This document shows, in pieces, positions 16,501-54,200 of a stretch of DNA of 64,000 nucleotides. The DNA is from Eubacteriales bacterium. Its GTDB lineage: Bacteria > Bacillota > Clostridia > Oscillospirales > CAG-272. Numbering within the stretch: position 1 is the stretch's first letter; every line of letters starts with the position of its first letter. Under the pieces are notes generated by a model. That model had not been told where the DNA came from, made no database searches, and saw only the letters and a program-made list of their open reading frames with translations. The translations under genes were made by a program, and so were the position numbers. The stretch is taken from assembly GCA_045580325.1 (NCBI GenBank), contig JAZNNR010000005.1, forward strand, positions 67,504 to 131,503, written 5' to 3'.

Positions 16501-19500
16501 GAAGAGCTTTTATATCCTCGGCGGTATAGTTAAGCGGAAGTATATCGCTTCGCGTATCAAATTCCTTTTTTAGAGGATAATTTTCTATCGATATACCAAG
16601 CCACTTGTCGTCTTTTCCGCTTTTTGAGCGTGAGTGATAAATAAGAATATCATGTTCTTCATCATAAAACGCCTCAACCGACAGCGAATCGTAAAAGGGG
16701 TGAGAGGCTCTGTCCTGTGCTTTTGTAAGGACGACCTCAAAGGCTATCATCGGCGTAAGCTCGGAAAATTTGCCGCTAACGTCGAGTTTAACGCAAAAAA
16801 TATCTTCTTCTCGCATCAGAGTAAGTGTCAGGGCTGACGATATTTTTTCCCCCATAACTATTCTCTGATTTTTGAATACTATCTTTGTTCCCGAGTAGTG
16901 CATACTGTCGGGAATAAACTGCAGCGCCTCGCTGTCAATACCGTAAAATACCTGCAAACCGTTTATTACAGAGTACATATCCCGCATATCAAAGGGATCT
17001 CTTGTTATAAGAATGTCCTTGTGTGCAAGCATAATGTGTCCCGCGTCCGATGCTGTGAGCGACGCAGTCTTTGAAGAGATCATACATACAGAGGGTATAT
17101 TTCCGCTTTTAGAAGCACTTTTCAGCGTTCTATCTGTGTTCGGATATCCGCGCGAAACATATTCGGGAATTTGAGCCTGTCTGTGTTTTGATATGCCCGC
17201 ATCTGTCGGGATAGCCTCGCAGAGAAGCTCCTTTACAGATGACATTTCTGGATCTCTCATAAATCTCTTTACAAATATATTGTCAAAACAGAGATTTACC
17301 GCCGAAATTATGCTCATACCGACATGATGCGACATATAGCTTTTTATTATCTCGGGCGAAAATCCTACTCTCGATACAGTAAAATCAAGAGCTTCGTAGA
17401 AGCCGTGCTTACCGTATGCTCCGTGTTTACAGAGCCGTTCGAGGTTCTTTATTGCGGCTTTTTCGGCTATTGCAAGGCAGAGAAATGAAGCGTAAGGCGC
17501 TATTACCTTATCCTTTCCTATCATCGGGTCAAGGGCAAGACGTGAAACTCCGTTTGCGCGGTACTGATAGTTCATAGCGAAATCAAAGGCATAATATCCG
17601 CTTTCTGAGATACCCCAAAAGCCTTTTATACGGTTTTCAATTTGGGCGTTTGCCGCAAAGGCAAGAGCTTCGCCCGAAAAAGAGTTTGCATACGACGGGA
17701 GAAAAAGGTGAGGCATAAAATACTCAAACATACTGCCCGACCAGGACGCAACCCCGATATATCCTCTGCTGCCAATTATCGGACGTCCGAGCCGATTCCA
17801 TGACTTTGCGGGAATTTGACCGTTTGCTACCGCAAAGTAGTAGGTCGAGCGCGCCTCGCTCATATAAAGATCGTAGCAGTTTTCACCCGACACCTCGCCC
17901 GAGGTGTCCATACCGATATAAAAAAGCTTGCGCTTTTTTGAATAAAGAATGGTAAAATCGGTAGAATATGCGATGTTTTTAAGCCTTTCTCTTATATCTG
18001 CAAGCCTTGGCTCGTCCTTTTCATATTCGCTTATACCTTCAATGAGAGTTATAAGCGATACGACGAAATTTCCGCTGTCTACTGTTGAAATATAAGGTGT
18101 ACCGAGGACTGTAAGCTTCTCGGTATCGTACCAGTTATAGAGATGTCCGTGCTTTTTAGGGAGATCTTCTATCGTTAAGAGGGTCTTTTCAAGCTTTGTA
18201 TAAAGAGTATGAGCATCTATAAAACCGCAGTCGCAGGCGGCAAGAGCGGACACGAGATACATTCCGATATTCGTAGGCGAAGTGCGGTGCGCTACGGCAA
18301 ATACAGGCGACTCCTGTACGTTATCGGGTGGAAGATAGTTTTCTTCGATAGTAACGTATGAGTCGAAATAGCTCCACATATCCTTTACCCAAGAAAGAAG
18401 TTTTTCTTTGTTTGCAGAGGATCTGATTTGCTTATAAGGTATATCAAAAGAGAGCAGTAAAAGAATTACGGGGAGAAAGCTCCATAAAAGTCCCATACAT
18501 TTAAGAAGGGGACTTCGCGCAAAAACGAGAGTAAAAAATCCGCAGGTGTAAGAAAGTACGCTCCAAGAGATCTGTGCGAAAAAGCCGCCGCGAGATTCAA
18601 GTGAGGATACCGTCCATTCAAGTGTATGCTTGTGGGTAATACGTGATCGCACAAATCCCTTTGTCAGCGCGTCAAGTGATACGAAAGCGTAAGCGAATAT
18701 TGACGATACACCGAAAAAAATGTCCCATAGCGCACTTCCGACAGATGGTATTACCTGCGAGAAAAAACGTCTGTTTATACCTCTGAGCGATTTGAAAATA
18801 ACGCACAGCGGCGGGATTATAAGATAGGAAAGTGCGGATAGGAGTAAAATATCCTGTGCGCCTGTATATAAAAGAGAAAGCAGAATAAGAGCTCCCGCAA
18901 AAATAGGGACAAGCGCTCTTCTTACGTTGTCTAATATAAAAAATTTTGAAACAGATGATACAGGATTTTTTTCACGCTTTCCGGCTTTGTTATATACGTA
19001 TTTCTTTGCATATAAGGTGGACTGTATATCGCCGCGTATCCATCTATGCAGACGCTTGAAGAAGGATGAAGGACTTGACGGATGCGAGTCGCTGAGGGTA
19101 ATATCGGCAAGTATACCGCAGCGCAGGCGCGAGCCTTCAAGGAGATCGTGGCTCAGTATCAGCTCGTCCCTGAAAGCATCAGGAATAAGCTCACAGTAGG
19201 CATCAACGTCGAAAATACCTTTTCCGCAAAAGATCCCCTCGTTAAAAAGCGACTGATAAAGGTCATACGATGCACTCTGATAGGACATAATGCCGCCTCG
19301 TGTCATAAGTGCTGAAAAATAACTTTTTCCCGCAGAGGCAAGTGAGGTCCGCATATGAGGCTGCATAATAGCGTACCCCGATATGACCCGTCCGTTTTTA
19401 ATTACAGGCTTGTTACTCGGGTGGAGCATAGCCGATACCATATCAAGCACAGCTTTGCTGTAAAGCTTTGTATCGCGGTCGAGGGTTACTACGTATTTTA

Positions 19501-37545: not shown

Positions 37546-38943
37546 TTAGCTCTGTGTCCAGTCTACTCCGTCGAGGGTATTGCCTGTTACAGTCTTAGTA
37601 CCGCCTGCAATAACGGGACCTGTTCCGGAACCGGAAACAAGGATCTTATTCGGGTTAGCGTCGTGGCCCTTAACACCGATCATAGTGTTGTTTGTAAATG
37701 TGAAGTTGCCTGTTACGCCGCCACCAAGAGTCTTAAATACACCATCTCCGGTGTTGAAGGTGCAGTTATCAATGGTTACGTTTCCGTTGATAGTGCTGTT
37801 TATAAGAATTGCCCAAGAACCAAAGTTGTTGAATGTACAACCTGTAAATACGAGATCGCCTGTGGTTGCACCGCTGTGAGAAACAGCATAGTCGCCTGTG
37901 CCCTTACCGTCGAAGGTGCAATCAACAACTGTGAAGTTACCTGCAACGGGACTGATCGCTGCATCAGCGTGCTTTCCACCGCCACTTACGAAAGAGCAAT
38001 CAACAACTGTAACGTCGCCGGTGAAGCCTGCTTCGGACGAGATGTTCTTTCCGGTTGTTTCGGTGTCAACAATACCGGTGATTACAACGTTCTCAGCGGT
38101 AGCGTTTGCAGTGAAGGCAACATTAGCGTTTGCACCCGAGAAATCAAGAGTCTTGTTTGCAATAGCGCCGTCAATTGTCAAAGTGTTGTTTGTAAGAGCT
38201 GCAGGGGAAATAATGAGATATGCCTCTTCATCAGAAGCAAGAGCTGCAGCGAGATCTGCGGGTGTGCTTACGGGAACAGCCTTTATAAGGCCAACGGTAT
38301 CAAATGCTTCGTATACGTTGTCGCCAACATTTTCAACCTGAACAGCATCAGCTACAACCTTGATATCGAAAGAGCCTGCGAGTTCAGCAGCCTGATACTG
38401 ATCGAGCGCGCTGTTAATTGTTACTGTGTCGAATACTACGAATTTCTCATCGGGAGCAATTGCCTTGTCATAGTAAATCTGATAAACAAAAGCATCGTTT
38501 TCATAGTCATAGTATGCTACTTCAGTGTGAATGGGTGCGTGACCATTGTACTTGTAGTTTACAAAGTTTTCGAGAGCAACCATTCTTGTACCGAATACGT
38601 CCTGCCAAACAGAAGCGTCGGTAATGGTTATGGTAGCGCGGATATACTCATCATAGGAACCGGTATTTTCGATATGTACTTCCTTGAAGAGCTCGTCGCC
38701 GGGGAGGATGTTTTCGAACTTGATACCATCCAGCTTAGGTTCATTTCCGTTGTCTTCGGGAGTGTCATCTTCCCAAACATCTACGGAGAAAATACTATCG
38801 GGATCATCTTCAGAATTTGCGATGTAGAAGTTGTTGGTTACTTCATCTTTAGCGGTGAACCATGCCAATGTGCTCATAGAAGCAATGGCAATGAGACAAA
38901 CAGCCAAAGAGAGCGCCAAAACTTTCTTTTTGGTAAGTTTCAT
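37546..38943 (-). CDS. 465-aa TasA-like N-domain protein with beta-helix-like C-terminus, SipW-type signal (class II: ..MSTLAWFTAKDEVTN)
   Basis: Start moved to ATG 38943 (MKLTKKKVLALSLAV..) after AAAAGGAGAAAAA. Motifs: ILPGDELFKEVHIENTGSYDEY and QYQAAELAGSFDIKVVADAVQ. Confidence 0.8.
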   Translation of the reverse strand: MKLTKKKVLALSLAVCLIAIASMSTLAWFTAKDEVTNNFYIANSEDDPDSIFSVDVWEDDTPEDNGNEPKLDGIKFENILPGDELFKEVHIENTGSYDEYIRATITITDASVWQDVFGTRMVALENFVNYKYNGHAPIHTEVAYYDYENDAFVYQIYYDKAIAPDEKFVVFDTVTINSALDQYQAAELAGSFDIKVVADAVQVENVGDNVYEAFDTVGLIKAVPVSTPADLAAALASDEEAYLIISPAALTNNTLTIDGAIANKTLDFSGANANVAFTANATAENVVITGIVDTETTGKNISSEAGFTGDVTVVDCSFVSGGGKHADAAISPVAGNFTVVDCTFDGKGTGDYAVSHSGATTGDLVFTGCTFNNFGSWAILINSTINGNVTIDNCTFNTGDGVFKTLGGGVTGNFTFTNNTMIGVKGHDANPNKILVSGSGTGPVIAGGTKTVTGNTLDGVDWTQS

Positions 38944-39092
38944 TGAATTTTTCTCCTTTTTATTATTTAATTGTTGATGGTTTACTTGTTTTGATAAGAC
39001 TTTCACAGCAATTTCCCTCCTTTCTTCAAAATTTATATTTCAAACTCATACCTACTGGAATTCCTTTAATAGATAAAAGTTGGAAATCAAGG

Positions 39093-39731
39093 TTACTCGG
39101 ATTTTTCGTCCGACTTTTCAGCACGAAGGCGTTCAAGCTCTGCTTTCAGACGCTCATTCTCCTCGCTTATCGCGTTTAATTCAGCCTGCTTTTCAGCTAC
39201 TTCGGGAGTTGTCTCGGGAGCTTTTTCGGGGTCTGCTACGACTTTTTCCTTCTTTTTTATTATATCAGGCAAAAATACGAGCGCAATGAGGAGCAGTCCC
39301 AAGCCCAGTGTGATATACATACCGGGGGGATTCTGAACGAAATCGGAAACGTATCCGAGCTTCGGAATGGAAAACTTCGGAACACCGATAAGGTTATTGA
39401 AGTGAACAGGTGCGTCCTCGGTGTCGTTCGTGTCGCCCTTGGTAATAAACTGTTTCTTTTCATTGTCGATTCTGACAACTCTGTGAGTACCGACCACGAG
39501 ATCCTCGTTTACTACAAATGTAATAACGTCGCCGACCTTGATAGTAGAAGGATCGACCTCTTTTACGTAAATAAGATCTCCGACGCTGTACTCGGGCTCC
39601 ATTGAAGGAGAAATAACGTTATAGCATTCATATCCGATAAGGCGCGAGCCCATCAGAAAGACTGCACAAAGAACCATCAGTATAACGATAACGGTAGTTG
39701 TGATACTCCATATTTTTTTTAGCGTAGTCAT
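39093..39731 (-). CDS. sipW: Signal peptidase I, archaeal/ER type (SipW-like, S26B)
   Basis: Start ATG 39731 (MTTLKKIW..). Motifs: ISPSMEPEYSVGDLIYVKE (catalytic Ser), GDVITF, GTHRVV (catalytic His), TKGDTNDTED. There is a second TM, then the coiled-coil acidic tail AEKQAELNAISEENERLKAELERLRAEK. Confidence 0.85.
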   Translation of the reverse strand: MTTLKKIWSITTTVIVILMVLCAVFLMGSRLIGYECYNVISPSMEPEYSVGDLIYVKEVDPSTIKVGDVITFVVNEDLVVGTHRVVRIDNEKKQFITKGDTNDTEDAPVHFNNLIGVPKFSIPKLGYVSDFVQNPPGMYITLGLGLLLIALVFLPDIIKKKEKVVADPEKAPETTPEVAEKQAELNAISEENERLKAELERLRAEKSDEKSE

Positions 39732-39762
39732 AGTATATGTACTCCTTATGATAGGTGTGAAC

Positions 39763-40473
39763 TTAGTCTGCGTTTTCTTCTTCGTTTGATGCTTCGGCAG
39801 GCTGCGAGTTTTTCTCTTCAAGCTGAGCCTTGAGAGCTTTCAGTTCCTCGAGCATCTTTGCATTTTCTGCCTTTTCCGACTCGATCAGATCTCTTTCTGC
39901 CTGCATTTCCTGCATCTGTTCCTGTCTGTATCTGCGGAAGAGGTTAAAGAATTTAACACCTTCGTAGAGAATTATCAGCATAAAGGGAGTGAAGATACAG
40001 ATGAAATATCCGGGAGTGGTCTTGAGGAAGTTGAAGAAAAATCCAAGACCCGGGATATGACTTTCGTACTTACCCAGAATGTAAGGGTAGGTAACGATCG
40101 TATCGTCGTCTGTGCCTGTTGTTGTACCGTATGTAATAAAGCCGGGGTTTCCTTCGGCATCAGTAGTAAGTTTGCGGATCTTATGGGTGATGATCCTTCC
40201 GAGGCTGTCCGAATCCTGAGACATAAAGGTGATGATGTCGCCCTCCTTCAAGGTGGAGGGATCTATTTCTTTTACGAAGATCAGGGCTCCTGCATTAAAG
40301 TCGGTCTTTGCCATCGAGTCCGAATTTACGATATACATCTTGTATCCGAAAATATCTCTGTCATTTCGGTTAAAGGTAGTTACCGAAACGACTGTGAATA
40401 TCATCATAGATATCGCCAGCAGTATAACAAGCCAGACAAGTGTTGTTTTTATTATGTTAAGAGCTTTTTTCAT
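39763..40473 (-). CDS. SipW-like signal peptidase paralog 2 (divergent, Ser/His retained) with C-terminal coiled-coil tail
   Basis: GYKMYIVNSDSMAKTDFNAGALIFVKE, GDIITF, ITHKIRK, TYGTTTGTDDD, a second TM, then EQMQEMQAERDLIESEKAENAKMLEELKALKAQLEEK. Confidence 0.75.
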   Translation of the reverse strand: MKKALNIIKTTLVWLVILLAISMMIFTVVSVTTFNRNDRDIFGYKMYIVNSDSMAKTDFNAGALIFVKEIDPSTLKEGDIITFMSQDSDSLGRIITHKIRKLTTDAEGNPGFITYGTTTGTDDDTIVTYPYILGKYESHIPGLGFFFNFLKTTPGYFICIFTPFMLIILYEGVKFFNLFRRYRQEQMQEMQAERDLIESEKAENAKMLEELKALKAQLEEKNSQPAEASNEEENAD

Positions 40474-41020: not shown

Positions 41021-41857
41021 ATGGCAAATCAAAAAATGAAAAGCGTTCTATCCCTCGTTATCAAGATTGCCAGTTGGGTTTTGATAGCGTTTGCCGTCTT
41101 CATTATGATATTTACCATTGTTTCGATGGCTACCTTAAATAAAAACGACCGAAATATTTTTGGATACAAATTCCTGATCGTAAAAACCGATTCAATGAGT
41201 CTGTCCGAAAATAATGCTGACGATGACGTTCATTTCAGTGCGGGCGACGTTATTATTATCAAAGATGTAGAAAATGCGTGGGCACTTAAACCCGGTGATG
41301 TAATTTCATTTACCTCTTTCGACGAGGATAGCTATATGGAAACCATCACGCATATGATTTATGAGGTCAAGAAAGACGACAAAGGTAATGTAGTAGGCTA
41401 CGTTACATATGGTACTAATACAGGAGCTACGGACGAAGCCATTGTTGAGCCGGAGTATATTTTAGGTAAATATACAGGCAAGCTACCCGGCGTCGGTCAT
41501 TTCTTCGCTTTCATTAAATCCACACCCGGATATATCGTATGCATACTCATACCATTTCTTTTACTTATCCTTTATCACGCTGTTAATGTGGTTAAGCTCT
41601 TCAGACAGTATAAGAAAGAGCAAAACGCAGTTTTGGAGGCAGAGAAGGCACAAATTGCAGAAGAAAAACGTCAGACAGAACAAATGCTTCGCGAGCTCCA
41701 AGCATTGAAGGAGCAGTTGACAATGCAAGGTCAAGTTCCGACCGAATCAACACCTACGAAGGATACTGCTTTCACATCTGATGCCGAGGCTGCTTCGGAG
41801 TCTTCACCCGAAAACGAATCCAAACCCCATTCTGATTCTACAAACGAACAGGATTGA
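41021..41857 (+). CDS. SipW-like signal peptidase paralog 3 (closest to paralog 2) with C-terminal coiled-coil/acidic tail
   Basis: GYKFLIVKTDSMSLSE, GDVISF, ITHMIYEV, TYGTNTGATDE, a second TM, then KKEQNAVLEAEKAQIAEEKRQTEQMLRELQALKEQL. Confidence 0.75.
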   Translation: MANQKMKSVLSLVIKIASWVLIAFAVFIMIFTIVSMATLNKNDRNIFGYKFLIVKTDSMSLSENNADDDVHFSAGDVIIIKDVENAWALKPGDVISFTSFDEDSYMETITHMIYEVKKDDKGNVVGYVTYGTNTGATDEAIVEPEYILGKYTGKLPGVGHFFAFIKSTPGYIVCILIPFLLLILYHAVNVVKLFRQYKKEQNAVLEAEKAQIAEEKRQTEQMLRELQALKEQLTMQGQVPTESTPTKDTAFTSDAEAASESSPENESKPHSDSTNEQD

Positions 41858-41948
41858 AATTCGTGCGGCAAAATCAATTAGGTTATTCTAAAATTAACAT
41901 AGAATATACAAAAAAACTACCATTTATATTTTGAAAAGGAGAAAACAA

Positions 41949-44189
41949 ATGAACAACAAAACCACAAAACGCACTTTGGTTTCCAGCGTAGTAGCTCTTC
42001 TTATTTGCTTTACAATGCTCATAGGAACTACATACGCATGGTTTACTGATGTTGTTACCTCTTCGGATAACATCATCAAGACCGGTATTCTGGATGCTGC
42101 TGTAACATGGACAGATGATTTTGCAGCTGCAGAAGATACTTGGAACGACGTTGAGGATCCTAACACAGAAGCCATATTCAACTATGAGCTTTGGGAGCCC
42201 GGATACGTTGCTGTTCGTTACCTTAAGGTTGCGAATGTCGGAACCCTTGCTTTCAAGTATAAGCTTGTTATCATTACTAACGGCTCTCTTGAGGACAAGG
42301 ATGGCGTTAAGCTTTCTGACGTAATTGACGTTTATTACGCACCCTCTAAGGTTGACGTTCCCAATCGAGACCTTGACAACAACCCCAACCTTACCAAAGT
42401 TGGTACTCTTAGCGACCTGATAACCGGCACTTCGGTTGTTAACGGTGTGCTTCTTGCAGGTCAGACCGATAGCATTGACTATGGTACTATCGTTCTTAAG
42501 ATGCAGGAGTCTGCGGGCAACGAATATCAGGACCTCGCAGTTGGTACCTCCTTCGACCTTATGCTCTTCGCAACTCAGTATACCTACGAAGAGGACAGCT
42601 TCGACCACCTCTACGACGAAGGCGCTGATTTCCCTAAATTCGGTACCGGAAGCGCACCTATCGTAGAAGGTAGCGCAGGTGTAGACATTGAAGTTCGTAA
42701 CGACGCTGGATATAAGGTTGCTTCCGTTACTGTTACTAAGGAATCCTACGCAACCGATGAATCCCAGATTGACGTTATCATCACCGAGAGCGATTATGTT
42801 CCTAATATCACAATCGCAGCAGGACGTGAGACTGAAACCGTTGATGTAAAGGTTACAGGTATTAAGCCCGGTAACACCGCTCCTATTAAGGTTGAGTATA
42901 GAATCGCTACAGGTCTTGACCCCGCTACCGTAAAGGTTTACCACTATGATACAGAGATCGTTGGTATAAATGATCTTCCCGACTATAAGACCACCTACGA
43001 TCCTAGCACCGGATACGTAACATTCTACACAACATCCTTCAGCCCGTACACTATCGAGTACGATAAGGATTCTGTTTACGTTCCTCCGGTAACTGATCCC
43101 GACGAACTTCCCGAAGCAATAGTAGTTGGATCTCCCGAGTACGAAAACGTTGATCTTCCTTGGGGTAACTTCGGCGGCTTCGCTCCCACAGAGGGTCTTG
43201 ACAGCCATCTCGAGTCTGCATTCACATTCAGCTGTGCTCAGACCGCAGAACAGGCAAAGGCAAGCCCCTATGCTGATTGGCACTGCGATTTCTACGTAAA
43301 GCTTGACAAGGATCTTGGCGAAAACGAGATCTTCCTCGGCGGTAACTACGGCGACTTCGGTTGGGTAGGCTTCCACAACGGTGATCTTACCCTTGATGCT
43401 AACACCGAAATTCCGCTTCTTGGTAGCGTAACTACAAATCCTTGGACTTATGCGGACATCGTTTCCTTCGTTGGTACATTCATTTGCGGCGTAGGTGACG
43501 TTAATGACGCTCTTGCAGGTGCAACATTCACCGTAATGCTTCGCCTCACCAATCCTGCGGATGCTACCGATTTCCACGATGTAGCAACTATCAACCACGT
43601 CTTCGAGGATAACAGAATCTACAACGCTGCTGATCTCCAGACTGCTGTTAATGCAGGCGGAAAAGTTGTGCTTGGCGCAGACGTTAATATGAACGGCGCA
43701 GCACTTCAGATTCCCGAAAACAGCGAGGTTACTCTTGATCTGAACGGTTACACTCTCACCTCTAAGGACGGTGGCGAAGGCAACTGGATGGCTGTTAAGG
43801 TTAACAGAGGCGCTAATTTCACTCTTAACGATAGCAAGGGAACAGGTAAGATAGTTTCCTCTTGCTACGGTGTTTACGTAAATCCCGGAGCAACCTTCAC
43901 TATGAACGGTGGTACTATTTCCGTTAGCGGAAACGGTGCATACGATATGGGAGTTGTTGTCTGGAACGGTAAGTTTGTTATGAATGCGGGCACAGTTGAA
44001 GGTAAGTATAGTGTATACGCTTCTGACTATTGGAAGAATATCGGCGACACTACTTGCGACTGCGAGATTATCGTTGCAAACGGCTGCACTCTTAACGCTT
44101 TAGTAGATCAGGTTAACACAGCTGAGGCACCTACTGCAATTGTCAGTGTTCCTAGTGGCGTTGTAGTAAACAGCACTGTATCTCAGTAA
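41949..44189 (+). CDS. 746-aa TasA/camelysin-like N-domain protein with Ig-like and beta-helix-like modules, SipW-type signal (class I)
   Basis: Start ATG 41949 after AAAGGAGAAAACAA (MNNKTTKRTLVSSVVALLICFTMLIGTTYAWFTDVVTSSDN). Motifs: ELWEPGYVAVRYLKVANVGTLAFKY and MQESAGNEYQD..LMLFATQYTYEEDSF. Confidence 0.8.
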   Translation: MNNKTTKRTLVSSVVALLICFTMLIGTTYAWFTDVVTSSDNIIKTGILDAAVTWTDDFAAAEDTWNDVEDPNTEAIFNYELWEPGYVAVRYLKVANVGTLAFKYKLVIITNGSLEDKDGVKLSDVIDVYYAPSKVDVPNRDLDNNPNLTKVGTLSDLITGTSVVNGVLLAGQTDSIDYGTIVLKMQESAGNEYQDLAVGTSFDLMLFATQYTYEEDSFDHLYDEGADFPKFGTGSAPIVEGSAGVDIEVRNDAGYKVASVTVTKESYATDESQIDVIITESDYVPNITIAAGRETETVDVKVTGIKPGNTAPIKVEYRIATGLDPATVKVYHYDTEIVGINDLPDYKTTYDPSTGYVTFYTTSFSPYTIEYDKDSVYVPPVTDPDELPEAIVVGSPEYENVDLPWGNFGGFAPTEGLDSHLESAFTFSCAQTAEQAKASPYADWHCDFYVKLDKDLGENEIFLGGNYGDFGWVGFHNGDLTLDANTEIPLLGSVTTNPWTYADIVSFVGTFICGVGDVNDALAGATFTVMLRLTNPADATDFHDVATINHVFEDNRIYNAADLQTAVNAGGKVVLGADVNMNGAALQIPENSEVTLDLNGYTLTSKDGGEGNWMAVKVNRGANFTLNDSKGTGKIVSSCYGVYVNPGATFTMNGGTISVSGNGAYDMGVVVWNGKFVMNAGTVEGKYSVYASDYWKNIGDTTCDCEIIVANGCTLNALVDQVNTAEAPTAIVSVPSGVVVNSTVSQ

Positions 44190-44480: not shown

Positions 44481-47400
44481 ATGAAAAAAACAAGACGTTC
44501 ATTCCTGCTGAGCGTAACGGCACTTATTCTGTGCTTTGCTATGCTCCTTGGCTCTACATTTGCGTGGTTTACCGATATCGTAACCAGCTCAAACAACAAA
44601 ATTGTATCAGGTACGCTTGACCTTGACCTTCAGCTTAAGGACAAGGAAACAGGGCAGTACACCTCTATTAACGAGAGCTCCGATCCCGTATTTGACTACG
44701 ACAATTGGGAACCCGGTTATACCGACGTGAAGGTATTAAAGGTTCTTAACGCAGGCTCGCTGTCGTTAAAATGGGTTAGTAATTTTGTGTCCCGCGAAGC
44801 TATTACAAAGCTCGCAGAGGTTATCGACGTTTACGTTAAGACTTCCGACAGCGATATTGCATACCCCGATGAAAGAACCGAGCTCACCTCTGCAAACGGC
44901 TGGAGGAAGATTGGTACTCTTAATCAGATAATCGATTCGACGATTCAGCCCGTAAACGGACAGCTCCTCCCGGGCGAAGCTGATTACTTTGCTGTAGCTC
45001 TGCATATGCAGGAGTCTGCGGGCAACGAATATCAGAACACCTCCGTCGGAGCGTTTGATATTACTGTTCACGCTACTCAGTATACTGTTGAAAACGATTC
45101 CTTCGGTCCCGACTACGACCAGAACGCGCAGTGGCCGAGCGGAGTAATTGACGGTACTATCGTTGCATCTTCTGCCGTAACTACCGATGAAAACGGCAAA
45201 GTAACCACCGCTGTAACTATGACAAACGGCAAGGTTAGTGCAACCGTTCCTGCAGGCACTCAGCTTGTTAGCGGCACAACGAGCGTAACAGTTACGGTTA
45301 GCCCTGTTCGTGAAAGCCAGGCTAACGTTACTCTTAGCGATACCGAAAAAATGCTTCCCGTTGACGTTCACATTGACGGCGTAGCAGAGAATAACGACGT
45401 TCCTATTCCCGTATATCTTACAGAGTGGCTCGACACCGGTCTTAATATCGGTAACTATCATCTCTATCACGTAGAGGACGGCGTAACAACCGAAATGACT
45501 CTCCGCGCGGATAATGCTACTCCCGTACATAATAATTTTGACTATGATCCCGCAACCGGCGACGTAGTTCTCTATATGGCATCATTCTCTGAAGTTGCTA
45601 TTGTAGCAGATACACTTAAGGCTTGGGAAGGTAACTACGATTATTCTTGGTATGATGCAGATGCTACCGAATTGAAGATCGCAAATGCTGACCAGCTTGC
45701 CGCTTTTAGCGCAATCGTCGGCGGTATGGCTAAGGACGAGAACGGCAACTTCTTAATTACATATACAGATACTGATGGTGATGTGCACCACAATGACTTT
45801 TTCGAAAACAAAACCGTAAAGCTTCTAGCTGACATCAACCTTGGCGACAAGGAATCCGAAAACAACCCTGATCTCATATTCTATCCTATCGGTTATTGGA
45901 ATAGTGAGGGCACTTACGAAAAGACCGGCACTGCTATCTCCAGCGGATTCTACGCATTCAAGGGGACATTCGATGGAAACGGTAATACCATCAAGAACTT
46001 CTATCAGAACACTTGGGAAATGAAGGGAGACCACGATTGGTACGACGCTACTCTTCAGTATTACCGCGACGGTATGGGACTCTTTGGTAAGATTCTCGGC
46101 GGTACCGTAAAGAATCTGACCGTTGACAATTTCTCTTGCGACAGTGAAATTGGTACATCTGGCGTTATTGCAGCGTATGCGGACTCCATATACGGCAAAC
46201 CCGCTGTTTTTGAAAATATCACGATAACAAACTGTAATCCCCGCGTTTATAATATAGGAAACGGCGGTATTGTCGGCTGCGCAGGCTGGTATTCGAGAAA
46301 TGACAGCTTGGGTACTGATGACTATGCCAATGCCGTAACATTCAGAAATATCACAGTTGACCAGACAAATAAGATCTCTGCACTGTGGGGCTCTTGGGGA
46401 GTTTCCTGCGCAGGTATTCTCGGTCAGTATTATCCTGACAGCGACTGCGGAATCAAGCTTGAAAACTGCCACGTTGCGGCAATAATTGACGTTAACAATG
46501 ACGTTTGCTCCAACTATCAGTATTATTGGTACAGATATGCAGGTATGTTTATCGGTACTATCAGAGCTAACACCACCGATAATGACGGCTATACAGTTGC
46601 AAACACTACCGGTGTTACTGCTACCGATTGTACCTACACTATGGGTAACTGGAATGAGTATTGGTACTGCGAGATCGTTGCAAACTCGATCGCTTCCTAT
46701 ACTCACGACCACCAGTTCAGCCGTCTTGAAAATATCTACGATTTGTCTAAGATTAAATCCGGTGATACTTGGTTGCAGGAAGGTCACTTCGCTCTGCTTG
46801 ACGAGAACAGAGATATTGTTGACTGCTACCACATCTTTAAAAACTCGGAAGGCGTGCTTTACAGGCACTTCCACGATAAGGGCGACGAAACCAATGGCTA
46901 CGAGCCTTATGAAACCGTTGATGTCGATGGAGACGGAGTAAAAGAAACAGTCCTCAAAGAAGACCGTCAGCGCTACTTTATCCCCTTCAACCAGCTTATG
47001 ACCGGACTTGATATGGGTATCAAAGCGCATACCGAGTTTGAAGGTATTAAGTTTGTTGAGAACGGAACGGTTCAGTCCGTACAGAAATTCAACGCTACTG
47101 AAAATACTGAAATTGCCGAGAATGCTACTGTAACGATCAAGGATTTGTTTATAGCAAGCGGCAATGGAACTATAAGTTCACCCACTGTTCAGGTTTACGT
47201 TTCTCCCATTGGATATGGCAGCACTGTTAGTGCGACATATTCGGGAAATACCGCAGATTGGGAAAAGGGAACTCTTACATTCTCAGGAACAGGTTCGGCA
47301 AAGGTTGTTATTACAGATTATTTCTATTGCACAAATACTGTTCTTTACGTAACGGTTGGCGGCAAAGTAACCGCATATAATAAATTCGACTCTAAGCTTA

Positions 47401-50400
47401 CCGGCGACTTCCTCTACCGAGTAGGTAATAAGAACACAGTTAATCTTGGCAGCTTGTTTAAGGCAAAAGAGGGCGTAACGATCGGTACAGTTGACGTAAC
47501 TATCGAGTCCGTTGGAGGCACAACTGCAAGCGGTACATACACTTCTAATGCAACTTGGACAAACGGAACGATTCAGTTCTCGGGTACAGGCGTTGTTAAG
47601 GTTACGATTACCGATAACAACTATTGCACACCTACCGTTCTTTACCTCGAAGTTGTTGATGCAACGAACGTAACAGGGCTTAGCGGAACTATATCAGGCA
47701 ACGTTGTTCTCCTTAACGACTGCGGACTTTCCTCGCTTACCGTAAGCGGACGTAATGCAGTTTACGGCAACGGATTCACTGCTACTTATACAGGCAACGG
47801 TCAGTACCTCAACAACGGTCTTAAGCAGGGCATTGTCACCGTAAAAGAAAATGGTACACTTGATAACCTTAGAGTGATTGCACCGATATATCCTAGAGCA
47901 TATCTCTATTATGGAACTACTTCATTAGGTGATTACGTTCAGGACGGTCCTTATGATGTAGGACCTAACGGTAATAGATATCATTATCAGCTTTCTGCAG
48001 TAGCAGCAAGCGGTAATGCTACGATTTCTAATTGCTACATCTACGGCGGTAGAAATAACATCTTTGTTAATACCGGCGATGTAACTATCAAGGATACAAT
48101 TCTTGAGTGTGGCACGGTTGCTAACATACAAATCCAGAGCAATAGCTCACATACAATTACCCTTGAAAATCTTACAACAATTCAGTATCAAGTAAATCCT
48201 ACTATTGATGATACTTCTAAGGTTATGCTTGGTGCAGGTATTATAGTTGGTCCCGAAACTACTGAAAATCCCGCTATCGTTTTGAATGGTGAGTTCAAGC
48301 AGTATAACTGGGTTAATGAAGATGATAAGAATGCTGCTTCAGATAAGGTTGCTAAAGAAATTATTAATGCAGCACTTAACGCAACAGCATACAATCATAC
48401 AATAAACGGAAAAACAACTTCTAACCTTGGCATCATTTATATGAATGATTACGAAGCAAAGGTTACTAATAACACAGGCTTACCTTATGTAATGGATACG
48501 CTTTCCATAAGCGGCGTAAATGGTCAGGCATACTCTCTCCAGGGTGCGACCGAAGAGCAGATTTACAGCGATTACGAAAACGCAGACAAATCTACTGAAA
48601 ACGATTGGTATCAGCCTCAGTTCAAGTATGATAGCACTCTCGGCGATCAGTATGTCGCTGAAGGCGGTGACGAGCATTGCTTCCGTGAAGGCGACACTAT
48701 TAAGGTATTGTTCCCCAGTGGCGATACCAAGGAGATTGATCTTGCTGCACTCGTAAATATCACGAAATACACAGGTCAGAATCTCGGTCTTGTAATTACT
48801 GTTAAGGATGAAAACGGCAATACTATCCCTGCAACAAATGGAAAAATAACTCTTACCAACGCGGGTGAGTACACAGTAACCTACACCGTAACAGATACAC
48901 TGTTCTTTGATAAAGACGGCAATACTGTTACTAAGACAGTAGAGTATTCTTGGGATGTAACTGTATCCGTTTCATTGAAGGACACTGCTGTTCCTAATGC
49001 ATATTTCGCTTATGATACTACAAAGCAGACTATGGGATATGCAAAGAAGAGTATGTTTGCGGGTGGAAACACGCAGTATCTTCCTTTCCTTGCAGGACTT
49101 AAGATTTATGACTACAACGGTCAAAATGCTTACTTGCGTTTTGACGGTGACAACGATTTCAACAAGATTGCCGCCGCTGAAATAACAGGTTATACGAGTG
49201 CAAATCATGTCCTCATTAAAGTAACACTTACTGATGGTGGCGTTATTAACATTGATACTACTGCTAGAGCAGCTTCTGGTGGATCTACTTATACAGGAAA
49301 ACTTCAAACAAGCGGTAACACTCTGTACTATGTAAATGACGGTACAACAAGTGCAACTACAACAACTTGGGTAATTTCTAGCTATAAATTTGTAGGAAAT
49401 AATGGTGTTGAAATAGACTCCGGTGCTGTTACATTCTCTAATTGTGAAAATGGAAGCGTACCTACCGGTAACTTCAACACATCTATCAAATACACCGTAA
49501 CCTACGATGCAAACGGCGGTAACTGCGGTCAAACTACCGGTTATGCTACTTCTGCAAGTGCAGCAGTAACACTTCCTACACCTACACGTAGCGGCTACAT
49601 CTTCGCTGGCTGGTACACGGCGGTAGAGGGCGGCACAAGAGTTGGCGGTGCAGGGGAAAGCTATACACCTTCCGCAAATATTACCCTTTATGCACAGTGG
49701 GGTAAGCCTTGCACGGTAACTTATAATGCAAACGGTGGTTCTTGCGGTACGGCTTCTGAAAAGTACATAGGCACAGCACTTACGCTTCCTACACCTACCC
49801 GCGACGGCTATTGGTTTATCGGTTGGTACGATGCAGCAAATGGCGGTAAAAAGGTAGGCGATGCAGGCGCAACCTATAATCCCAGTGGCGAAATCACACT
49901 TTATGCACATTGGCAGGAAAAGGTCGAGTACACTGTAACCTACAACGCGAACGGCGGTACGTGTGGTACAGCTTCTGCTACCTATCAGGGTACGGCACTG
50001 ACGCTTCCCACACCTACTCGTACAGGATATAAGTTCCTCGGCTGGTACACAGCGGCAAGTAGCGGTACCAAGATTGGCGATGCAGGTGCATCCTACATAC
50101 CTGAGGCAAATATCACACTTTACGCACAGTGGCAGATAAATAGCTATACAATTAAAGTTACAACGAACAATGCAACTGTTAATGTAAATGGTACAGCAGT
50201 TAGCAACAATGGCACAGTATCGATACAGTATGGTGCACAGGTAACTGTAGAAGTTACTTATTCCCAGAGTAGCAGCAAGTCAACGACAATTGAAGGCGCG
50301 GATGGAACAACTTACACCAGTCCCTTTAATATGCCTGCTCAGAATGTAACTATTAACGCAACCAGTACCAGTCCCTGCGTAACCTCCGACACAGTTATTA

Positions 50401-51053
50401 CTCTCGCAGACGGTACTCAGAAGAGAATCGACGAGGTGACATACGATGATTATTTGCTCGTTTGGGACTTCTACAATGGCAAGTATTCTGTTGCTCCTGC
50501 ATCTATCGTAATGAATCATGGATACAATAATTATACGGTTGTTGCTCTAAGATTCAGCGACGGAACGGAGGTTAAGACTATTAACGGACACGGTTTCTTC
50601 GATGTGGCAACTAATGAGTATGTAATACTTAACGAAGAAAATGTTGCAAACTATCTTGGTCATGAATTTGTTCAAGTTGATGGTGATGGATATAACACTG
50701 TAAAGCTTGAAAGCTATGATATTTACAAGGAATATACCGAAAGCTGGTCTATCCTCACAGTGAAACACTACAACTGCATACTTGAAAATATGTGGACAAT
50801 AACACCCGCAGAGGTTGAAGGAAGCTGTGAATACCTTATGCCCTTCGATGTAAGTGATGAAATGAAATTTGATGCTGTTGCTATGCAGACAGACATCGAA
50901 AAGTATGGTCTTTACACCTATGAAGATTTTAGAGAGTATTGCACGTATGAGCAGTTTGCAGCCTTTGGCCTTGAAAACTGGAAGGTTGCAGTTGGCAAGG
51001 GATACATTACTTGGGAAGAGATCCTTTACTTAATAAGCATTCACATTGGATAA
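44481..51053 (+). CDS. 2,190-aa giant secreted protein: SipW-type signal + TasA/camelysin-like domain + Ig-like modules + GLUG-like conserved module + beta-helix region + 3 Listeria-Bacteroides repeats + C-terminal Hint domain
   Basis: MKKTRRSFLLSVTALILCFAMLLGSTFAWFTDIVTSSNNKIVSG. Motifs: DNWEPGYTDVKVLKVLNAGSLSLKW, MQESAGNEYQN..ITVHATQYTVENDSFGPDYD, ADQLAAFSAIVGGM and FKGTFDGNGNTIKNFYQNTWE. The repeats and Hint domain are listed separately. Confidence 0.85.
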   Translation: MKKTRRSFLLSVTALILCFAMLLGSTFAWFTDIVTSSNNKIVSGTLDLDLQLKDKETGQYTSINESSDPVFDYDNWEPGYTDVKVLKVLNAGSLSLKWVSNFVSREAITKLAEVIDVYVKTSDSDIAYPDERTELTSANGWRKIGTLNQIIDSTIQPVNGQLLPGEADYFAVALHMQESAGNEYQNTSVGAFDITVHATQYTVENDSFGPDYDQNAQWPSGVIDGTIVASSAVTTDENGKVTTAVTMTNGKVSATVPAGTQLVSGTTSVTVTVSPVRESQANVTLSDTEKMLPVDVHIDGVAENNDVPIPVYLTEWLDTGLNIGNYHLYHVEDGVTTEMTLRADNATPVHNNFDYDPATGDVVLYMASFSEVAIVADTLKAWEGNYDYSWYDADATELKIANADQLAAFSAIVGGMAKDENGNFLITYTDTDGDVHHNDFFENKTVKLLADINLGDKESENNPDLIFYPIGYWNSEGTYEKTGTAISSGFYAFKGTFDGNGNTIKNFYQNTWEMKGDHDWYDATLQYYRDGMGLFGKILGGTVKNLTVDNFSCDSEIGTSGVIAAYADSIYGKPAVFENITITNCNPRVYNIGNGGIVGCAGWYSRNDSLGTDDYANAVTFRNITVDQTNKISALWGSWGVSCAGILGQYYPDSDCGIKLENCHVAAIIDVNNDVCSNYQYYWYRYAGMFIGTIRANTTDNDGYTVANTTGVTATDCTYTMGNWNEYWYCEIVANSIASYTHDHQFSRLENIYDLSKIKSGDTWLQEGHFALLDENRDIVDCYHIFKNSEGVLYRHFHDKGDETNGYEPYETVDVDGDGVKETVLKEDRQRYFIPFNQLMTGLDMGIKAHTEFEGIKFVENGTVQSVQKFNATENTEIAENATVTIKDLFIASGNGTISSPTVQVYVSPIGYGSTVSATYSGNTADWEKGTLTFSGTGSAKVVITDYFYCTNTVLYVTVGGKVTAYNKFDSKLTGDFLYRVGNKNTVNLGSLFKAKEGVTIGTVDVTIESVGGTTASGTYTSNATWTNGTIQFSGTGVVKVTITDNNYCTPTVLYLEVVDATNVTGLSGTISGNVVLLNDCGLSSLTVSGRNAVYGNGFTATYTGNGQYLNNGLKQGIVTVKENGTLDNLRVIAPIYPRAYLYYGTTSLGDYVQDGPYDVGPNGNRYHYQLSAVAASGNATISNCYIYGGRNNIFVNTGDVTIKDTILECGTVANIQIQSNSSHTITLENLTTIQYQVNPTIDDTSKVMLGAGIIVGPETTENPAIVLNGEFKQYNWVNEDDKNAASDKVAKEIINAALNATAYNHTINGKTTSNLGIIYMNDYEAKVTNNTGLPYVMDTLSISGVNGQAYSLQGATEEQIYSDYENADKSTENDWYQPQFKYDSTLGDQYVAEGGDEHCFREGDTIKVLFPSGDTKEIDLAALVNITKYTGQNLGLVITVKDENGNTIPATNGKITLTNAGEYTVTYTVTDTLFFDKDGNTVTKTVEYSWDVTVSVSLKDTAVPNAYFAYDTTKQTMGYAKKSMFAGGNTQYLPFLAGLKIYDYNGQNAYLRFDGDNDFNKIAAAEITGYTSANHVLIKVTLTDGGVINIDTTARAASGGSTYTGKLQTSGNTLYYVNDGTTSATTTTWVISSYKFVGNNGVEIDSGAVTFSNCENGSVPTGNFNTSIKYTVTYDANGGNCGQTTGYATSASAAVTLPTPTRSGYIFAGWYTAVEGGTRVGGAGESYTPSANITLYAQWGKPCTVTYNANGGSCGTASEKYIGTALTLPTPTRDGYWFIGWYDAANGGKKVGDAGATYNPSGEITLYAHWQEKVEYTVTYNANGGTCGTASATYQGTALTLPTPTRTGYKFLGWYTAASSGTKIGDAGASYIPEANITLYAQWQINSYTIKVTTNNATVNVNGTAVSNNGTVSIQYGAQVTVEVTYSQSSSKSTTIEGADGTTYTSPFNMPAQNVTINATSTSPCVTSDTVITLADGTQKRIDEVTYDDYLLVWDFYNGKYSVAPASIVMNHGYNNYTVVALRFSDGTEVKTINGHGFFDVATNEYVILNEENVANYLGHEFVQVDGDGYNTVKLESYDIYKEYTESWSILTVKHYNCILENMWTITPAEVEGSCEYLMPFDVSDEMKFDAVAMQTDIEKYGLYTYEDFREYCTYEQFAAFGLENWKVAVGKGYITWEEILYLISIHIG
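49491..50147 (+). repeat. Three tandem 219-nt (73-aa) Listeria-Bacteroides (Flg_new-type) repeats inside the giant gene
   Basis: Units start at 49491, 49710 and 49929. Each reads (Y/C)TVTY(D/N)ANGG.CG....Y.G.A(L/V)TLPTPTR.GY.F.GWY.A..GG.(K/R)(V/I)G.AG..Y.P...ITLYA(Q/H)W. Confidence 0.85.
50376..50805 (+). other. Hint (Hedgehog/intein-like) autoprocessing domain at residues ~1966-2108 of the giant protein
   Basis: It begins ..TSTSP|CVTSDTVITLADGTQKRIDEV (intein block-A-like Cys..DT.V...DG). A block-B-like EVKTINGHGFF follows, then the terminal strands WSILTVKHYNCILENMWTIT. An ~82-aa unassigned tail comes after it. Confidence 0.65.
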
Positions 51054-51206: not shown

Positions 51207-54200
51207 ATGAAAACCAAAAAATCATTACTCGCAAGCAGCATAGCACTGCTTTTGTGCTTTGCAATGTTGCTCGGATCTACGTTTGCGTGGTTTACCGACG
51301 TCGTAACGAGCTCCGGCAACAAAATTCAGTCAGGCTCATTAAAGCTTGATCTGAAGGTGCTTACCGAGGTTGAAGCCACGGACGGCACGACTTATTACGA
51401 ATGGGTATCTATCAAGAATGACAGATCACCCCTTTTCACCTATGAAAATTGGGAACCCGGTTATACCGACGTTACCATTTTAATGGTTGAAAACCTTGGC
51501 ACTCTGGCACTCAAATGGGAAGCTAGATTTGCCTCTGACAAACCCCTTTCTGCTTTGGCAGACGTTATCGACGTTTACGTCAAGCCCGGCGTAACTTCGT
51601 ATCCTGCTAACAGATCTGATCTTGAGGCTAACGGTTGGAACAACGTTGGCTGCCTCAAAGACTTCGTTAACAAGCTTTCAGAAACCACGTACGGTTATCT
51701 TGACGGCATCGGCAGCGGCGGCACTACCAGTGCTACTCTCGGTATTGCTCTCAAGATGCGTGAGGAAGCGGGCAACGAGTATCAGAACCTCACACTCGGT
51801 GAATTTGATATTCGTATCGTAGCAACACAGGCAATGAAGGAAGATGACTCCTTTGGTCCTGACTACGACGAAGACGCTCAGTGGCCTGTATTTAAAGGCA
51901 GCGTAAGCGCTTCCGCGCCCGTAACCAATAATAATGGTACGCTTGCTTCTGATACAACTGTTTCCAGTACAGACGGCAAGATCAGTGCAACTCTTCCTGC
52001 AGGCGTTACGCTTAATAACGGTACAGACAAGGTTACCCTCAGCGTAAGCGAGAAGACCGAAAGTGAAGCAGGTATTCTCGCTGCACCTGGTGTAGCTATG
52101 TCCCCTGTTGACGTACATATTGAAGGCGTTGCAGAAGGGAACACCACTCCTATTCCTGTAACCATTCAGGCGCTCCTTCCTGCCGGTCTTAATGCAGGTA
52201 ACTACAAGCTCTACCACGTAGAAGACGGTAATACCATTGAGATGACTCTTCGTGCAGCAGGTCAGACTCCTGCTCATAATACCTTTGATTACGATCCCGC
52301 AACAGGCGACGTAACACTCTATCTTGCATCCTTCTCTGAGGTTATGGTGCAGGCAGACATGGAAAACAAGTGGCAAGGCGGTATGGATTTCAGTTGGTAT
52401 GAGTATTCTCTCGACGGTGAAATTTTCAAGATCTCCAACGCTGACCAGCTTGCAGCCTTTAGCGCAATCGTCGGCGGTATGAAATATGATTTTGAAGGAA
52501 ATCTTCTCCCCGAATATACCCCCAACTATGCCGCTGATTCCTTCGAAGGCAAGATCGTAACTCTTACCGGTGATATCTTCATCGGTGATACTGACAAATA
52601 TGCCGAAAACGGTGATGCTTCCGCAAACGGCTTTATGTTCTATCCTATCGGTTACTATAACACTACTTATAGTTACCAAAAGAAAGATAAGATAGATGTT
52701 TCCAGTGGTTTTAAGCGCTTCAAAGGCACATTTGACGGTTGTGGACACATTATTTCCGACTTCTATCAGAACACATGGGAAGCATTCGGTGACTACAATG
52801 ACGGTTACTCAGGCACACCTAACCACAACCGCGACGGCTTCGGTCTGTTCGGTAATGTTTTAGGTTCTAGAGATGGCGAAGAATACACCGGCGGTATCAT
52901 TAAGAACCTTACTGTTAATAATTTCTCTTCTGACGGTGAATTTACCACCACAGGTGCTATCGCAGCTTATGCTGACGGAGCACTCTTCGAAAATATCTCT
53001 ATTACCAACTGTAATCCCCGTGTTTACAACATCGGTAACGGCGGTATCGTAGGATGCGTTGGTTGGTATGCTGAGACAGCAGGCTTACTTACCACCTTCA
53101 AGAACGTTACCGTAGATAACTCTAACAAGATCACAGCTCTTTGGGGATCTTGGGACGTTGCCTGCGGCGGTATCGTTGGTCAGTACTATCCCACCAGCGG
53201 TCAGTCGGCACACAACTATCCCGTAAACGCCGGAATGCACTTCGAGAACTGTCATTCCTCTGCTGTTATAGACGTTTATAACGACGTGTGCGCAAACTAT
53301 CAGTACTACGCATACCGTTATTCAGGACTTCTTATCGGTTCTGTTCGCGAGAACGTTGAGGAGGACGGCCACTCATATCCCGATATGACAGGCATCACCG
53401 CAAGCGGCTGTACCGTTCACTTCGGCGACTGGAACGACTACTACTACTGCGAGATCGTTGCAAACTCTCTCGCATCCTATACTCATGACCACCAGATGAG
53501 CCGTTTGACTCAGGTGAAGAGTATTGATGTAGAAAATATGAAGTATCTCCCTCTCGGTGAAACAAATAGCGCTGAGAATTGGGTTAATATTCCTACATCC
53601 GGTTGGGCTCACTACGTTGTAGTTAAGGATTATAACGAAACTACAGGTAAATATACCCACGGTGACGGACACGGCTTTGCAGATTGCTACCACTTTAATA
53701 ACGGTAATGTTCATACACACGAAAGTGCAGGCACCGAAACCGTTAATGGAGTTCCGGGTATACTCAAAGAAGATAAGCAGCTTATCTACCGCGAATTCAA
53801 CAACCTTGTAACCGGCTACGGCTGGGGCGTAACAAGCAAGGGTGTTGGCGACCTTGACGGTGTAGAGAACCTTGACGATATAATAGAAAACGAAGGCGAA
53901 TCCTACGATAAGTTCGTACAGAAGAGCCACGACGCTAACCTTACGAGCAATAATACATACAGATTCGGTGAATTCTTTGATGCTATATCTAATAATCCTA
54001 CAGTAAGCATTCTTTCTCCTACGGTAACCATTTCTGCAAACAACGTTACCGCAGAGGATAAAGTAACCGTAGAGATTACCCGTAATAAGGATAATTGGGA
54101 AAATAGCACCATCGTATTCCGCGGTGCAGGTACGATTACCCTTACTATTCAGGATTACTATTTCTGTAATCCCACCACAACCACACTTCAATTTGAAGTT

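Follow-up and report, generated by a model that had tools for sequence, protein, structure and literature searches.

The window analysed here is a stretch of 64,000 nucleotides from a Eubacteriales bacterium (contig JAZNNR010000005.1). It encodes a secreted giant protein of 2,190 residues (positions 44481..51053, forward strand), whose open reading frame (ORF) is uninterrupted according to the ORF list and the translation. We propose, with a probability of roughly 0.7, that residues 1966–2190 of this protein (50376–51053, from the codon of Cys1966 through the last base of the stop codon) constitute a self-contained, single-turnover autoprocessing cassette, in which a Hint domain and a conserved tail have the layout of the Hedgehog "Hog" domain. 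Inteins and Hedgehog lipidation both rely on the chemistry of Hint domains; the examples known from bacteria are mainly bacterial intein-like (BIL) domains and pre-toxin Hint domains, whose action is plain cleavage. In Hog, the stretch that follows the Hint domain brings in cholesterol, so that cleavage becomes ligation; a general-base aspartate (Asp46 in Hedgehog) activates the sterol for transfer. The novelty here is a Hint clade, predicted to lack a C-terminal cleavage site, that is welded to a conserved, obligatory accessory domain at the protein end, the same layout as that of the ligating Hedgehog protein. In Clostridia that abound in the gut and rumen, the cassette sits at the end of the largest surface proteins, among them TasA-like fibre proteins and type IV pilin-like giants. 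A literature search for this family found no published description.

The Hint domain and its catalytic residues

The Hint domain comprises residues 1966–2108 (143 residues; 50376..50804, forward strand), as defined by the family profile against PDB sequences, an AlphaFold2 model and Foldseek. Curated hidden Markov models (HMMs) score low on the 2,190-residue protein itself. The model for the intein N-terminal region (TIGR01445) aligns with residues 1966–2040 over model positions 1–82 of 83, with 21–22 bits (E 2e-4 to 4e-4) and a cutoff of 24.5 bits; Intein_splicing (PF14890) reaches 14–18 bits, below its threshold of 35.8; and the Hint model PF01079, which scores ~20 bits on representative carriers (cutoff 29.7), has no match on this protein. 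A single-sequence search of PDB sequences with the last 235 residues found no match. The same query retrieved 71 relatives, nearly all covering 95–100% of its length, 37 of which (alignment A1) served as family profile and as input for AlphaFold2. The best match of the A1 profile among PDB sequences is the BIL2 Hint domain of Tetrahymena BUBL1 (6y75/6tmm), with E=7e-8 over the full domain, followed by weaker matches to an intein-C-containing protein, Hedgehog and inteins. A Pfam scan of the relatives matched PF01079 in 15 of 37 (best E=9e-9), Hom_end_hint (PF05203) in 7/37, Intein_splicing in 6/37 and, weakly, PT-HINT (PF07591) in 3/37.

The AlphaFold2 model of the 235 residues has a mean predicted local distance difference test (pLDDT) score of 93.9 and a predicted template modelling (pTM) score of 0.89. 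Foldseek matched residues 11–153 of the model to mini-inteins (DnaB, RecA and DnaE), BIL2 and Hedgehog (1at0) in the PDB, with E values of 3e-9 to 3e-7, a probability of 1.00 and target-normalised template modelling (TM) scores of 0.75–0.85. Of the features of the HINT superfamily, the β-fold, a cysteine as residue 1 (block A) and, through the family profile, a match to a solved Hint sequence are all found. Thus, on the family profile, the Pfam matches in relatives and the predicted fold, we regard the assignment of residues 1966–2108 to this superfamily as secure. A preliminary description of this DNA, made from the sequence alone, had proposed a Hint domain here and Hint-family HMMs as a check on it. 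On the single protein, the curated models agree with this but stay below threshold; the profile search, the relatives and the predicted fold bear it out, at E values of 7e-8 (profile) and ~3e-9 (Foldseek) that set the likeness apart from chance. The size of the domain, that of a mini-intein, also agrees with the earlier remark that a homing-endonuclease insert is missing.

Conservation was assessed in a pool of ~250–270 family members (representative proteins, genomic ORFs and the window protein), which share just 28–70% identity. Cys1966 (50376..50378, forward strand), the predicted nucleophile, lies in the context ..NATSTSP|CVTSDTVITLADGTQKRIDEV. It aligns with position 1 of TIGR01445, as its earlier reading as the start of block A had implied, and is invariant in all 243 aligned family members. 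The predicted scissile bond is Pro1965|Cys1966, with VTSDTVITLADGTQKRIDEV C-terminal to Pro1965; the −1 residue (1965) is small across the family (Ser, Gly, Thr or Pro). The block-B histidine, His2037 (Hint residue 72; 50589..50591, forward strand), is part of KTINGHGFF and is conserved in 259 of 259 sequences. Two structural glycines, Gly1978 and Gly2000, are 100% conserved in the pool. As Cys1 and the block-B histidine are fully conserved in so deep a family, retained chemistry is predicted: the Hint domain appears to keep the requirements for an N-to-S acyl shift, and its N-terminal cleavage chemistry is probably active. Release or thioester transfer of the 1,965 residues ahead of it, as suggested in the preliminary description, is the outcome that this conserved pair predicts.

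The terminal strands of the domain (WSILTVKHYNCILENMWTIT), correctly singled out in the preliminary description, align with blocks F and G of Tetrahymena BIL2 ('...HNFFANGVLAH(N)'), pairing HYNCILENMWTIT of the window protein with HNFFANGVLAHN. By this alignment, Asn2098 (50772..50774, forward strand), which lies in 'HYN' opposite 'HNFF' of BIL2 and is 96% conserved, is the asparagine of a block-F 'HNF'-type motif, and Thr2108 (50802..50804, forward strand) occupies the place of the terminal asparagine of inteins and A-type BIL domains. Across the pool, residue 2108 is Thr (59%), Pro (17%), Asp (12%) or Ser (7%), and the +1 residue, Pro2109 in the window protein, is Pro, Phe, Gly or Ala, none of them a nucleophile. 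A terminal His-Asn was looked for at the end of the Hint domain in the window protein and ~250 relatives and was not found; the earlier observation that a terminal His-Asn plus nucleophile is missing therefore holds, with Thr2108 and Pro2109 at the junction. We also considered 'KHYN|C' as a terminal asparagine followed by a +1 cysteine, and rejected it because the asparagine belongs to block F in the BIL2 alignment and the next cysteine is not conserved. The domain thus seems to lack the requirements for Asn cyclisation, C-terminal cleavage or splicing, and we predict N-terminal cleavage or transfer rather than splicing.

More distant Hint clades, retrieved with a Hint-only profile (A3), end in '..LT[SG]N' followed by other C-terminal sequences. 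Since the nearest other Hint clades retain the terminal asparagine, its loss appears to be specific to the tail-carrying clade. In one sister clade (P0225, P0230–P0237, P0243, P0247 and P0070), '..LT[SG]N' precedes a different tail of ~70 residues (NIYPIxDMKFVKDxRxLR..EEFxGID.KYI.GLRLQEQ); in another (P0238–P0248), '..LT[SG]N' is kept with just a few residues after it. Kinship between the 'DMKF' tail of the former and the tail of the cassette was considered and set aside, as the hhalign E value of 0.07 is not significant and the common part is a short 'DMK[FY]' hairpin.

The asparagine kept in sister clades, the mini-intein size and the presence of blocks A, B and F would all suit true splicing or a BIL-type ligation, in which the tail would be joined to the cargo and the Hint domain excised. 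For A-type BIL domains, splicing does not require a +1 nucleophile, according to the account of Dassa et al. 2004 given in PMC7765530. Against this stand the threonine at the terminal-Asn position (T/P/D/S in the family), the missing penultimate histidine and the +1 proline, as well as the nature of the hosts, which are variable surface proteins and not conserved enzymes. We therefore consider splicing very improbable.

The tail domain and the proteins that carry it

The tail (residues 2109–2190, 82 residues; 50805..51050, forward strand) consists of a short variable linker and a conserved five-helix domain. Its consensus is F-E-x-G-E-D-M-K-Y-D-E-x-x-M-Q-A-D-I-E-K-Y-G-L-Y-T-Y-E-D-F...F-K-V-x-V-G-K-G..T..E.I, with the core motif DIEKYGLYTYEDF...FKVxVGKG. 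Modelled alone by AlphaFold2 (pLDDT 90.7), it forms a small hairpin followed by five short helices. It is folded with equal confidence within the 235-residue model, where the pTM of the whole suggests that it packs in a fixed way against the Hint domain. The tail is acidic (isoelectric point 4.1), not hydrophobic, and soluble. Searches of Pfam, NCBIfam, PDB sequences and the viral folds of BFVD gave no match, and the best match among PDB folds has E=2.5. The tail is thus as unassigned as it had been described; the structure prediction and homologue search proposed for it have supplied a confident fold and a large set of relatives.

A tail-profile search of 1.84 billion representative proteins (clusters at 50% identity) identified 2,136 at E<=1e-3 and 1,765 at E<=1e-10. 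The cassette family is therefore very large, encompassing thousands of large surface proteins, and it is effectively unannotated, with a Hint domain below Pfam thresholds and a tail in no family; most database entries of the relatives have neither a precomputed Pfam match nor a name. A Hint domain of this clade lies directly upstream of the tail in 137 of the 141 best new matches, the other four being fragments of 80–129 residues, and the tail is the protein end in all but 4 of these 141. Nothing follows the tail in >95% of members. YGLYxY is 98–100% conserved in ~270 sequences, although the choice of sequence sets, made in part through the tail motif, inflates such figures for the tail.

A few members depart from this organisation. 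Five (L067, L079, L082, P0154 and P0162) extend past the tail with an acidic or Pro-rich linker and a β-rich domain of ~200 residues (..TLTASGTA.TGYA.ITVDG..YT...GDVYVAVY..); a Pfam scan of these ~200-residue extensions found nothing significant. In P0147, a transmembrane helix follows the tail and ends the protein. In P0069, an AraC-type helix-turn-helix is fused to the last Hint strand and the tail, and in P0212, Hint and tail are fused to a TldD/PmbA-like C terminus; both are probably assembly or gene-call artefacts.

The constancy of the tail bears on whether the cassette is part of a polymorphic toxin, in which a pre-toxin Hint domain would free the tail as a small effector, a role that the preliminary description had entertained. 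The C-terminal position on large secreted proteins and the weak PT-HINT matches in relatives would be compatible with this. However, the tail is invariant and not polymorphic, it is among the most conserved parts of the protein, and its small, acidic, helical domain has no toxin fold. With no C-terminal cleavage site predicted, it would also remain fused to the Hint domain. Neighbour clustering over ~80 loci, in search of any partner gene kept across loci, whether for an acceptor, an immunity protein or an enzyme, returned only other giants, SipW peptidases and small TasA-like proteins, and no immunity-like gene is conserved downstream. We therefore disfavour the effector role and regard a toxin as extremely improbable; the tail is better explained by a role in assembly or nucleophile recognition, coupled to the Hint domain. 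As no neighbouring gene is conserved, the cassette appears to be self-sufficient.

A scan of one genome per GTDB species identified 193 cassette loci, nearly all in metagenome-assembled genomes (MAGs) of Clostridia from gut, caecum, rectum and rumen, with a few in Bacilli/Acholeplasmatales. The clostridial families and groups include Oscillospiraceae, Faecousia, Acutalibacteraceae, Christensenellaceae and Lachnospiraceae. The carrier ORFs at these loci span 1,100 to >3,500 residues, and representatives reach 5,822 residues, for which reason we rejected the notion of a small stand-alone protein. The homologue search with the 235-residue query had returned just proteins of <=410 residues, close to the query in length; such short matches reflect fragments at contig ends, split genes or a length bias in the search itself. 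L062, at 255 residues, consists of only a signal peptide, Hint domain and tail. Between carriers, the cassette is 62–71% identical and the cargo is 24–50% identical or unrelated, including the comparison of pilin-type carriers with the SipW-type window protein. The better conservation of the cassette indicates that it behaves as a conserved, shuffled unit.

The N-termini of the carriers are diverse. Among 109 representatives of >=700 residues, 43 have a plain Sec-like signal, 17 an 'SxWLI' N-terminus (a hydrophobic segment followed by [GS][SA]SW[LIV][IV]), at least 15 a type IV pilin-like leader (KGFTLVELLVVIAILAIL), and 11 a SipW-type signal (GTTFAWFTD). The remaining 23 are unclassified, mostly fragments, and include 4 further pilins missed by the pattern; N_methyl (PF07963) scores above threshold in pilin-type carriers. 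The 'SxWLI' type, exemplified by GASSWLIINE (L056, L072, L074, L077, L078, L080, P0083, P0118 and P0145 among the ~17), is distinct from the SipW-type and pilin-type motifs and may be another processing or anchoring signal.

Giants with the cassette often occur as tandem pairs on a contig or in several copies per MAG (L007, L050, L071, L083 and L002; MAGs JAZRDI01 and JAZOQZ01), usually adjoining other giant secreted proteins. Several carrier genes are interrupted just upstream of the cassette. At L005 (9296–10834), within a type IV pilus operon, a 170-residue type IV pilin is followed by a single in-frame TAG and then by 341 residues that include the cassette. A single in-frame TAA splits a protein of ~1,550 residues at L001 (9935–10001), and L002 (9984–10001) shares the same frameshift with L003 in two independent samples. 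These interruptions could be pseudogenes, phase variation, readthrough or assembly errors.

Proposed mechanism and relation to known systems

The acyl shift to a thioester, followed by attack of a nucleophile, is the common chemistry of the HINT superfamily (PMC7765530, PMC2362128), and the following sequence of events is modelled on it and on the sequence features above. The giant would be exported by the Sec route and its signal cut off by a SipW-type peptidase, after which the Hint domain would fold outside the cell. Cys1966, aided by His2037, would then attack the Pro1965-Cys1966 bond, and the resulting N-to-S acyl shift would leave the mature cargo of 1,919 residues held as a thioester on the Cys1966 side chain. 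Because Thr2108 takes the terminal-Asn position and +1 is a proline, neither Asn cyclisation nor C-terminal cleavage nor splicing would follow, and the tail would remain on the Hint domain. Finally, a nucleophile would resolve the thioester, detaching a Hint-tail fragment of 26 kDa and leaving a cargo that ends at Pro1965. Resolution by water or a small thiol, amounting to simple release or maturation, is a real possibility at a little under even odds; transfer to a specific acceptor, such as the cell wall, a fibre subunit or an external substrate, is more tentative.

By analogy with Hog, the most likely function of the tail would be to make the reaction productive, either by recruiting or positioning the attacking nucleophile or by holding the module at the place of cleavage. 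Its strict coupling and conservation, in a clade predicted to have no C-terminal chemistry, argue that it takes part and is not a passenger.

Several points weigh against the cassette as we have drawn it. Curated Hint HMMs stay sub-threshold on the 2,190-residue protein and most of its relatives. The threonine of the intein TxxH motif is not kept: the residue at His−3 is Ile or Val, and Thr2033 (His−4) is found only in close relatives, so that of the T...H block that had been read in KTINGHGFF, the 100% conserved histidine stands and the threonine paired with it does not. The tail has no similarity to the sterol recognition region (SRR) of Hedgehog or to any known binding domain, which makes the nucleophile-recruiting role pure analogy, and its conservation is overstated by the choice of sequences mentioned above. 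Lastly, many carriers are probably already tethered at their N-termini (by a TasA-like strand, a pilin helix or a membrane anchor), and self-anchoring is therefore not an obvious need. The low HMM scores and the missing threonine could also speak for a catalytically dead Hint fold, with a purely structural or binding function. A deep family in which Cys1 and the block-B histidine never vary bears the signature of retained chemistry, and this makes such a dead fold improbable.

Hog, in which the Hint domain is followed by an SRR or adduct recognition region (ARR), is the closest analogy to the proposed autoprocessing cassette in layout. Both have a secreted cargo, a Cys-first Hint domain and an accessory region (~70 residues) at the extreme C terminus, a match of layout only; both lack the terminal asparagine, and in both only the N-terminal bond is, or would be, processed. 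Foldseek matches to 1at0 and 6tyy have E values of 3e-7 to 5e-7 and target-normalised TM scores of ~0.76, and PF01079 is the Pfam model that matches most relatives of the cassette. In contrast to Hedgehog, the hosts are gut Clostridia and some Bacilli, and the cargoes are surface proteins of 1,000–5,800 residues. Since PF01079 remains below threshold and the soluble, acidic, helical tail has no detectable relation to the SRR, Hog is a working analogy and does not imply membership. Other unclassified bacterial proteins with C-terminal Hint-like domains have been described in proteobacteria and myxobacteria by Bürglin (PMC2362128), and bacterial "Hog-like" arrangements are thus not unprecedented in principle.

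BIL domains are self-cleaving and occur in variable secreted bacterial proteins (PMC7765530, PMC2362128). BIL2 of Tetrahymena BUBL is the best sequence match of the family profile among solved structures. However, BIL2 and the A-type domains, whose C-terminal His-Asn is highly conserved (PMC7765530), end in this pair, whereas the cassette clade has Thr, Pro, Asp or Ser there and is thus not an A-type BIL. B-type domains, found in variable proteins secreted by bacteria, have all intein motifs but the C-terminal one (PMC7765530), an outline that fits the Hint domain of the cassette by description only. For BIL domains, unlike the cassette, no obligatory and conserved partner at the C terminus is described. 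PT-HINT domains similarly lie near the C-termini of very large secreted proteins and presumably release their flanks, but they accompany a variable toxin and an immunity gene; with an invariant, non-toxin-like tail and no partner gene, the cassette is not a member. Class 1 mini-inteins (Ssp/Npu DnaB and Mtu RecA) share the fold (Foldseek E 3e-9 to 1e-7), blocks A, B and F, Cys1 and a length of ~140 residues. They differ in having the terminal asparagine and the +1 Cys, Ser or Thr, in the absence of which the cassette is not an intein, and in their location inside an essential enzyme rather than at the end of a non-conserved surface protein. The Hint domain of the cassette also contains no homing endonuclease, and nothing points to mobility of its DNA.

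The fate of the thioester is the point on which the remaining alternatives divide. One is covalent transfer, in the manner of a built-in sortase or chemical harpoon: the tail would bind a specific acceptor (an amine of peptidoglycan or lipid II, a lysine on an adjacent fibre subunit, or an amine or hydroxyl group of a substrate from host or plant), and the cargo C terminus would become ester- or amide-linked to it, like cholesterol on Hedgehog. The Hog layout, with a Hint domain and a conserved domain of ~70 residues at the very C terminus, points in this direction. With water as the sole nucleophile, it would also be hard to explain why the tail is so strictly coupled and so conserved, given related Hint clades that do without this tail; moreover, the carriers are fibre-forming or surface proteins that have no LPXTG motif, and the 43 with a Sec-like signal have only this cleavable signal. 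On the other hand, no fold that binds wall, lipid or sugar can be recognised in the acidic, soluble tail, the ~80 loci share no conserved partner gene, and the diversity of N-terminal tethering argues against a single universal anchoring role. We hold transfer to be possible, at clearly less than even odds.

A precedent in chemistry, by analogy only, is offered by sortase anchoring and the thioester-domain adhesins of Gram-positive bacteria, in which the C-terminal carboxyl of a surface protein, or a group on its surface, goes through a cysteine thioester; an amine from the wall, from another pilin or from a host protein can resolve this thioester. In those systems, a separate enzyme (sortase) carries the thioester, or the bond is an internal one between Cys and Gln, and the folds are unrelated; transfer by the cassette is put forward only as a hypothesis. 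In its fullest form, which we regard as rather doubtful, the cassette would be a bacterial counterpart of Hedgehog autoprocessing that ligates: the tail would pick the acceptor, and the Cys1966 thioester would pass the C terminus of the giant onto it. Candidate acceptors are the cell's own wall, a neighbouring TasA-like or pilus subunit, and a host or plant-fibre molecule. If this were true, it would constitute a new route of covalent surface attachment, sortase-independent, enzyme-free and single-use, spread across gut Clostridia, and the compact cassette of 225 residues would be of biotechnological interest as a self-ligating tag.

The other alternative is a timed release, in which Hint and tail would stay at the cell or site while slow or thiol-triggered hydrolysis of the thioester shed the giant or unmasked its C terminus. 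BIL and PT-HINT domains act by simple cleavage (PMC7765530), and the minority of members with a transmembrane helix (P0147) or a ~200-residue domain after the tail would be expected if the C-terminal fragment were retained. The great majority of members nevertheless end with the tail, which has no anchor-like feature, and the extensions contain no recognisable wall-binding domain; we consider such a timed release rather unlikely. If the autoprocessing cassette only cleaves, it would still define the maturation of the giants and their true C terminus.

The cargo and its genomic context

The window protein begins with a SipW-type signal peptide (residues 1–46; 44481..44618, forward strand) with the motif LLGSTFAWFTD. 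TIGR04088 matches residues 16–46 with 23 bits (cutoff 19), and Peptidase_M73 (PF12389) matches a TasA/camelysin-like N-terminal domain at residues 12–100 with 25 bits (cutoff 22.5). Three Listeria-Bacteroides (Flg_new) repeats occupy residues ~1671–1886 (49491..50138, forward strand; PF09479, E=8.8e-44, three stretches). They are followed by a β-rich spacer of ~80 residues and a Ser/Thr linker that leads to Cys1966. The repeats and the TasA-like N terminus are the only recognisable domains of the cargo, and calling it an adhesin, as in the preliminary description, is an assumption.

Three genes for SipW-type (archaeal-type) signal peptidase I, identified by TIGR02228 and NF046067 matches, lie just upstream at 39093–39821 and 39763–40473 on the reverse strand and 41021–41857 on the forward strand, and presumably process the N terminus of the giant. 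Other SipW-cognate proteins are encoded beside it at 37546–39006 (reverse), 41931–44189 (forward) and 51207–57788 (forward). The signal and domain matches, the peptidase genes and these neighbours confirm that the protein is a SipW-dependent giant, as had been stated. A scan for promoters and terminators around the gene found nothing exceeding shuffled expectation.

Positions 37546–57788 of the window form a SipW/TasA-like island, comprising the three paralogous peptidase genes and four proteins with SipW signals (485, 752, 2,190 and 2,193 residues). The cassette is present only on the 2,190-residue protein of this island; the 2,193-residue neighbour has BspA-type leucine-rich repeats instead. 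Elsewhere in the window are unrelated genes for a 2,404-residue protein with GH94 catalytic, GH94 supersandwich and glucoamylase-like domains (13505–20719, reverse strand), a ComEC-type competence protein (20772–23030, reverse strand) and a Schlafen-group-3-like helicase (58747–60876, forward strand).

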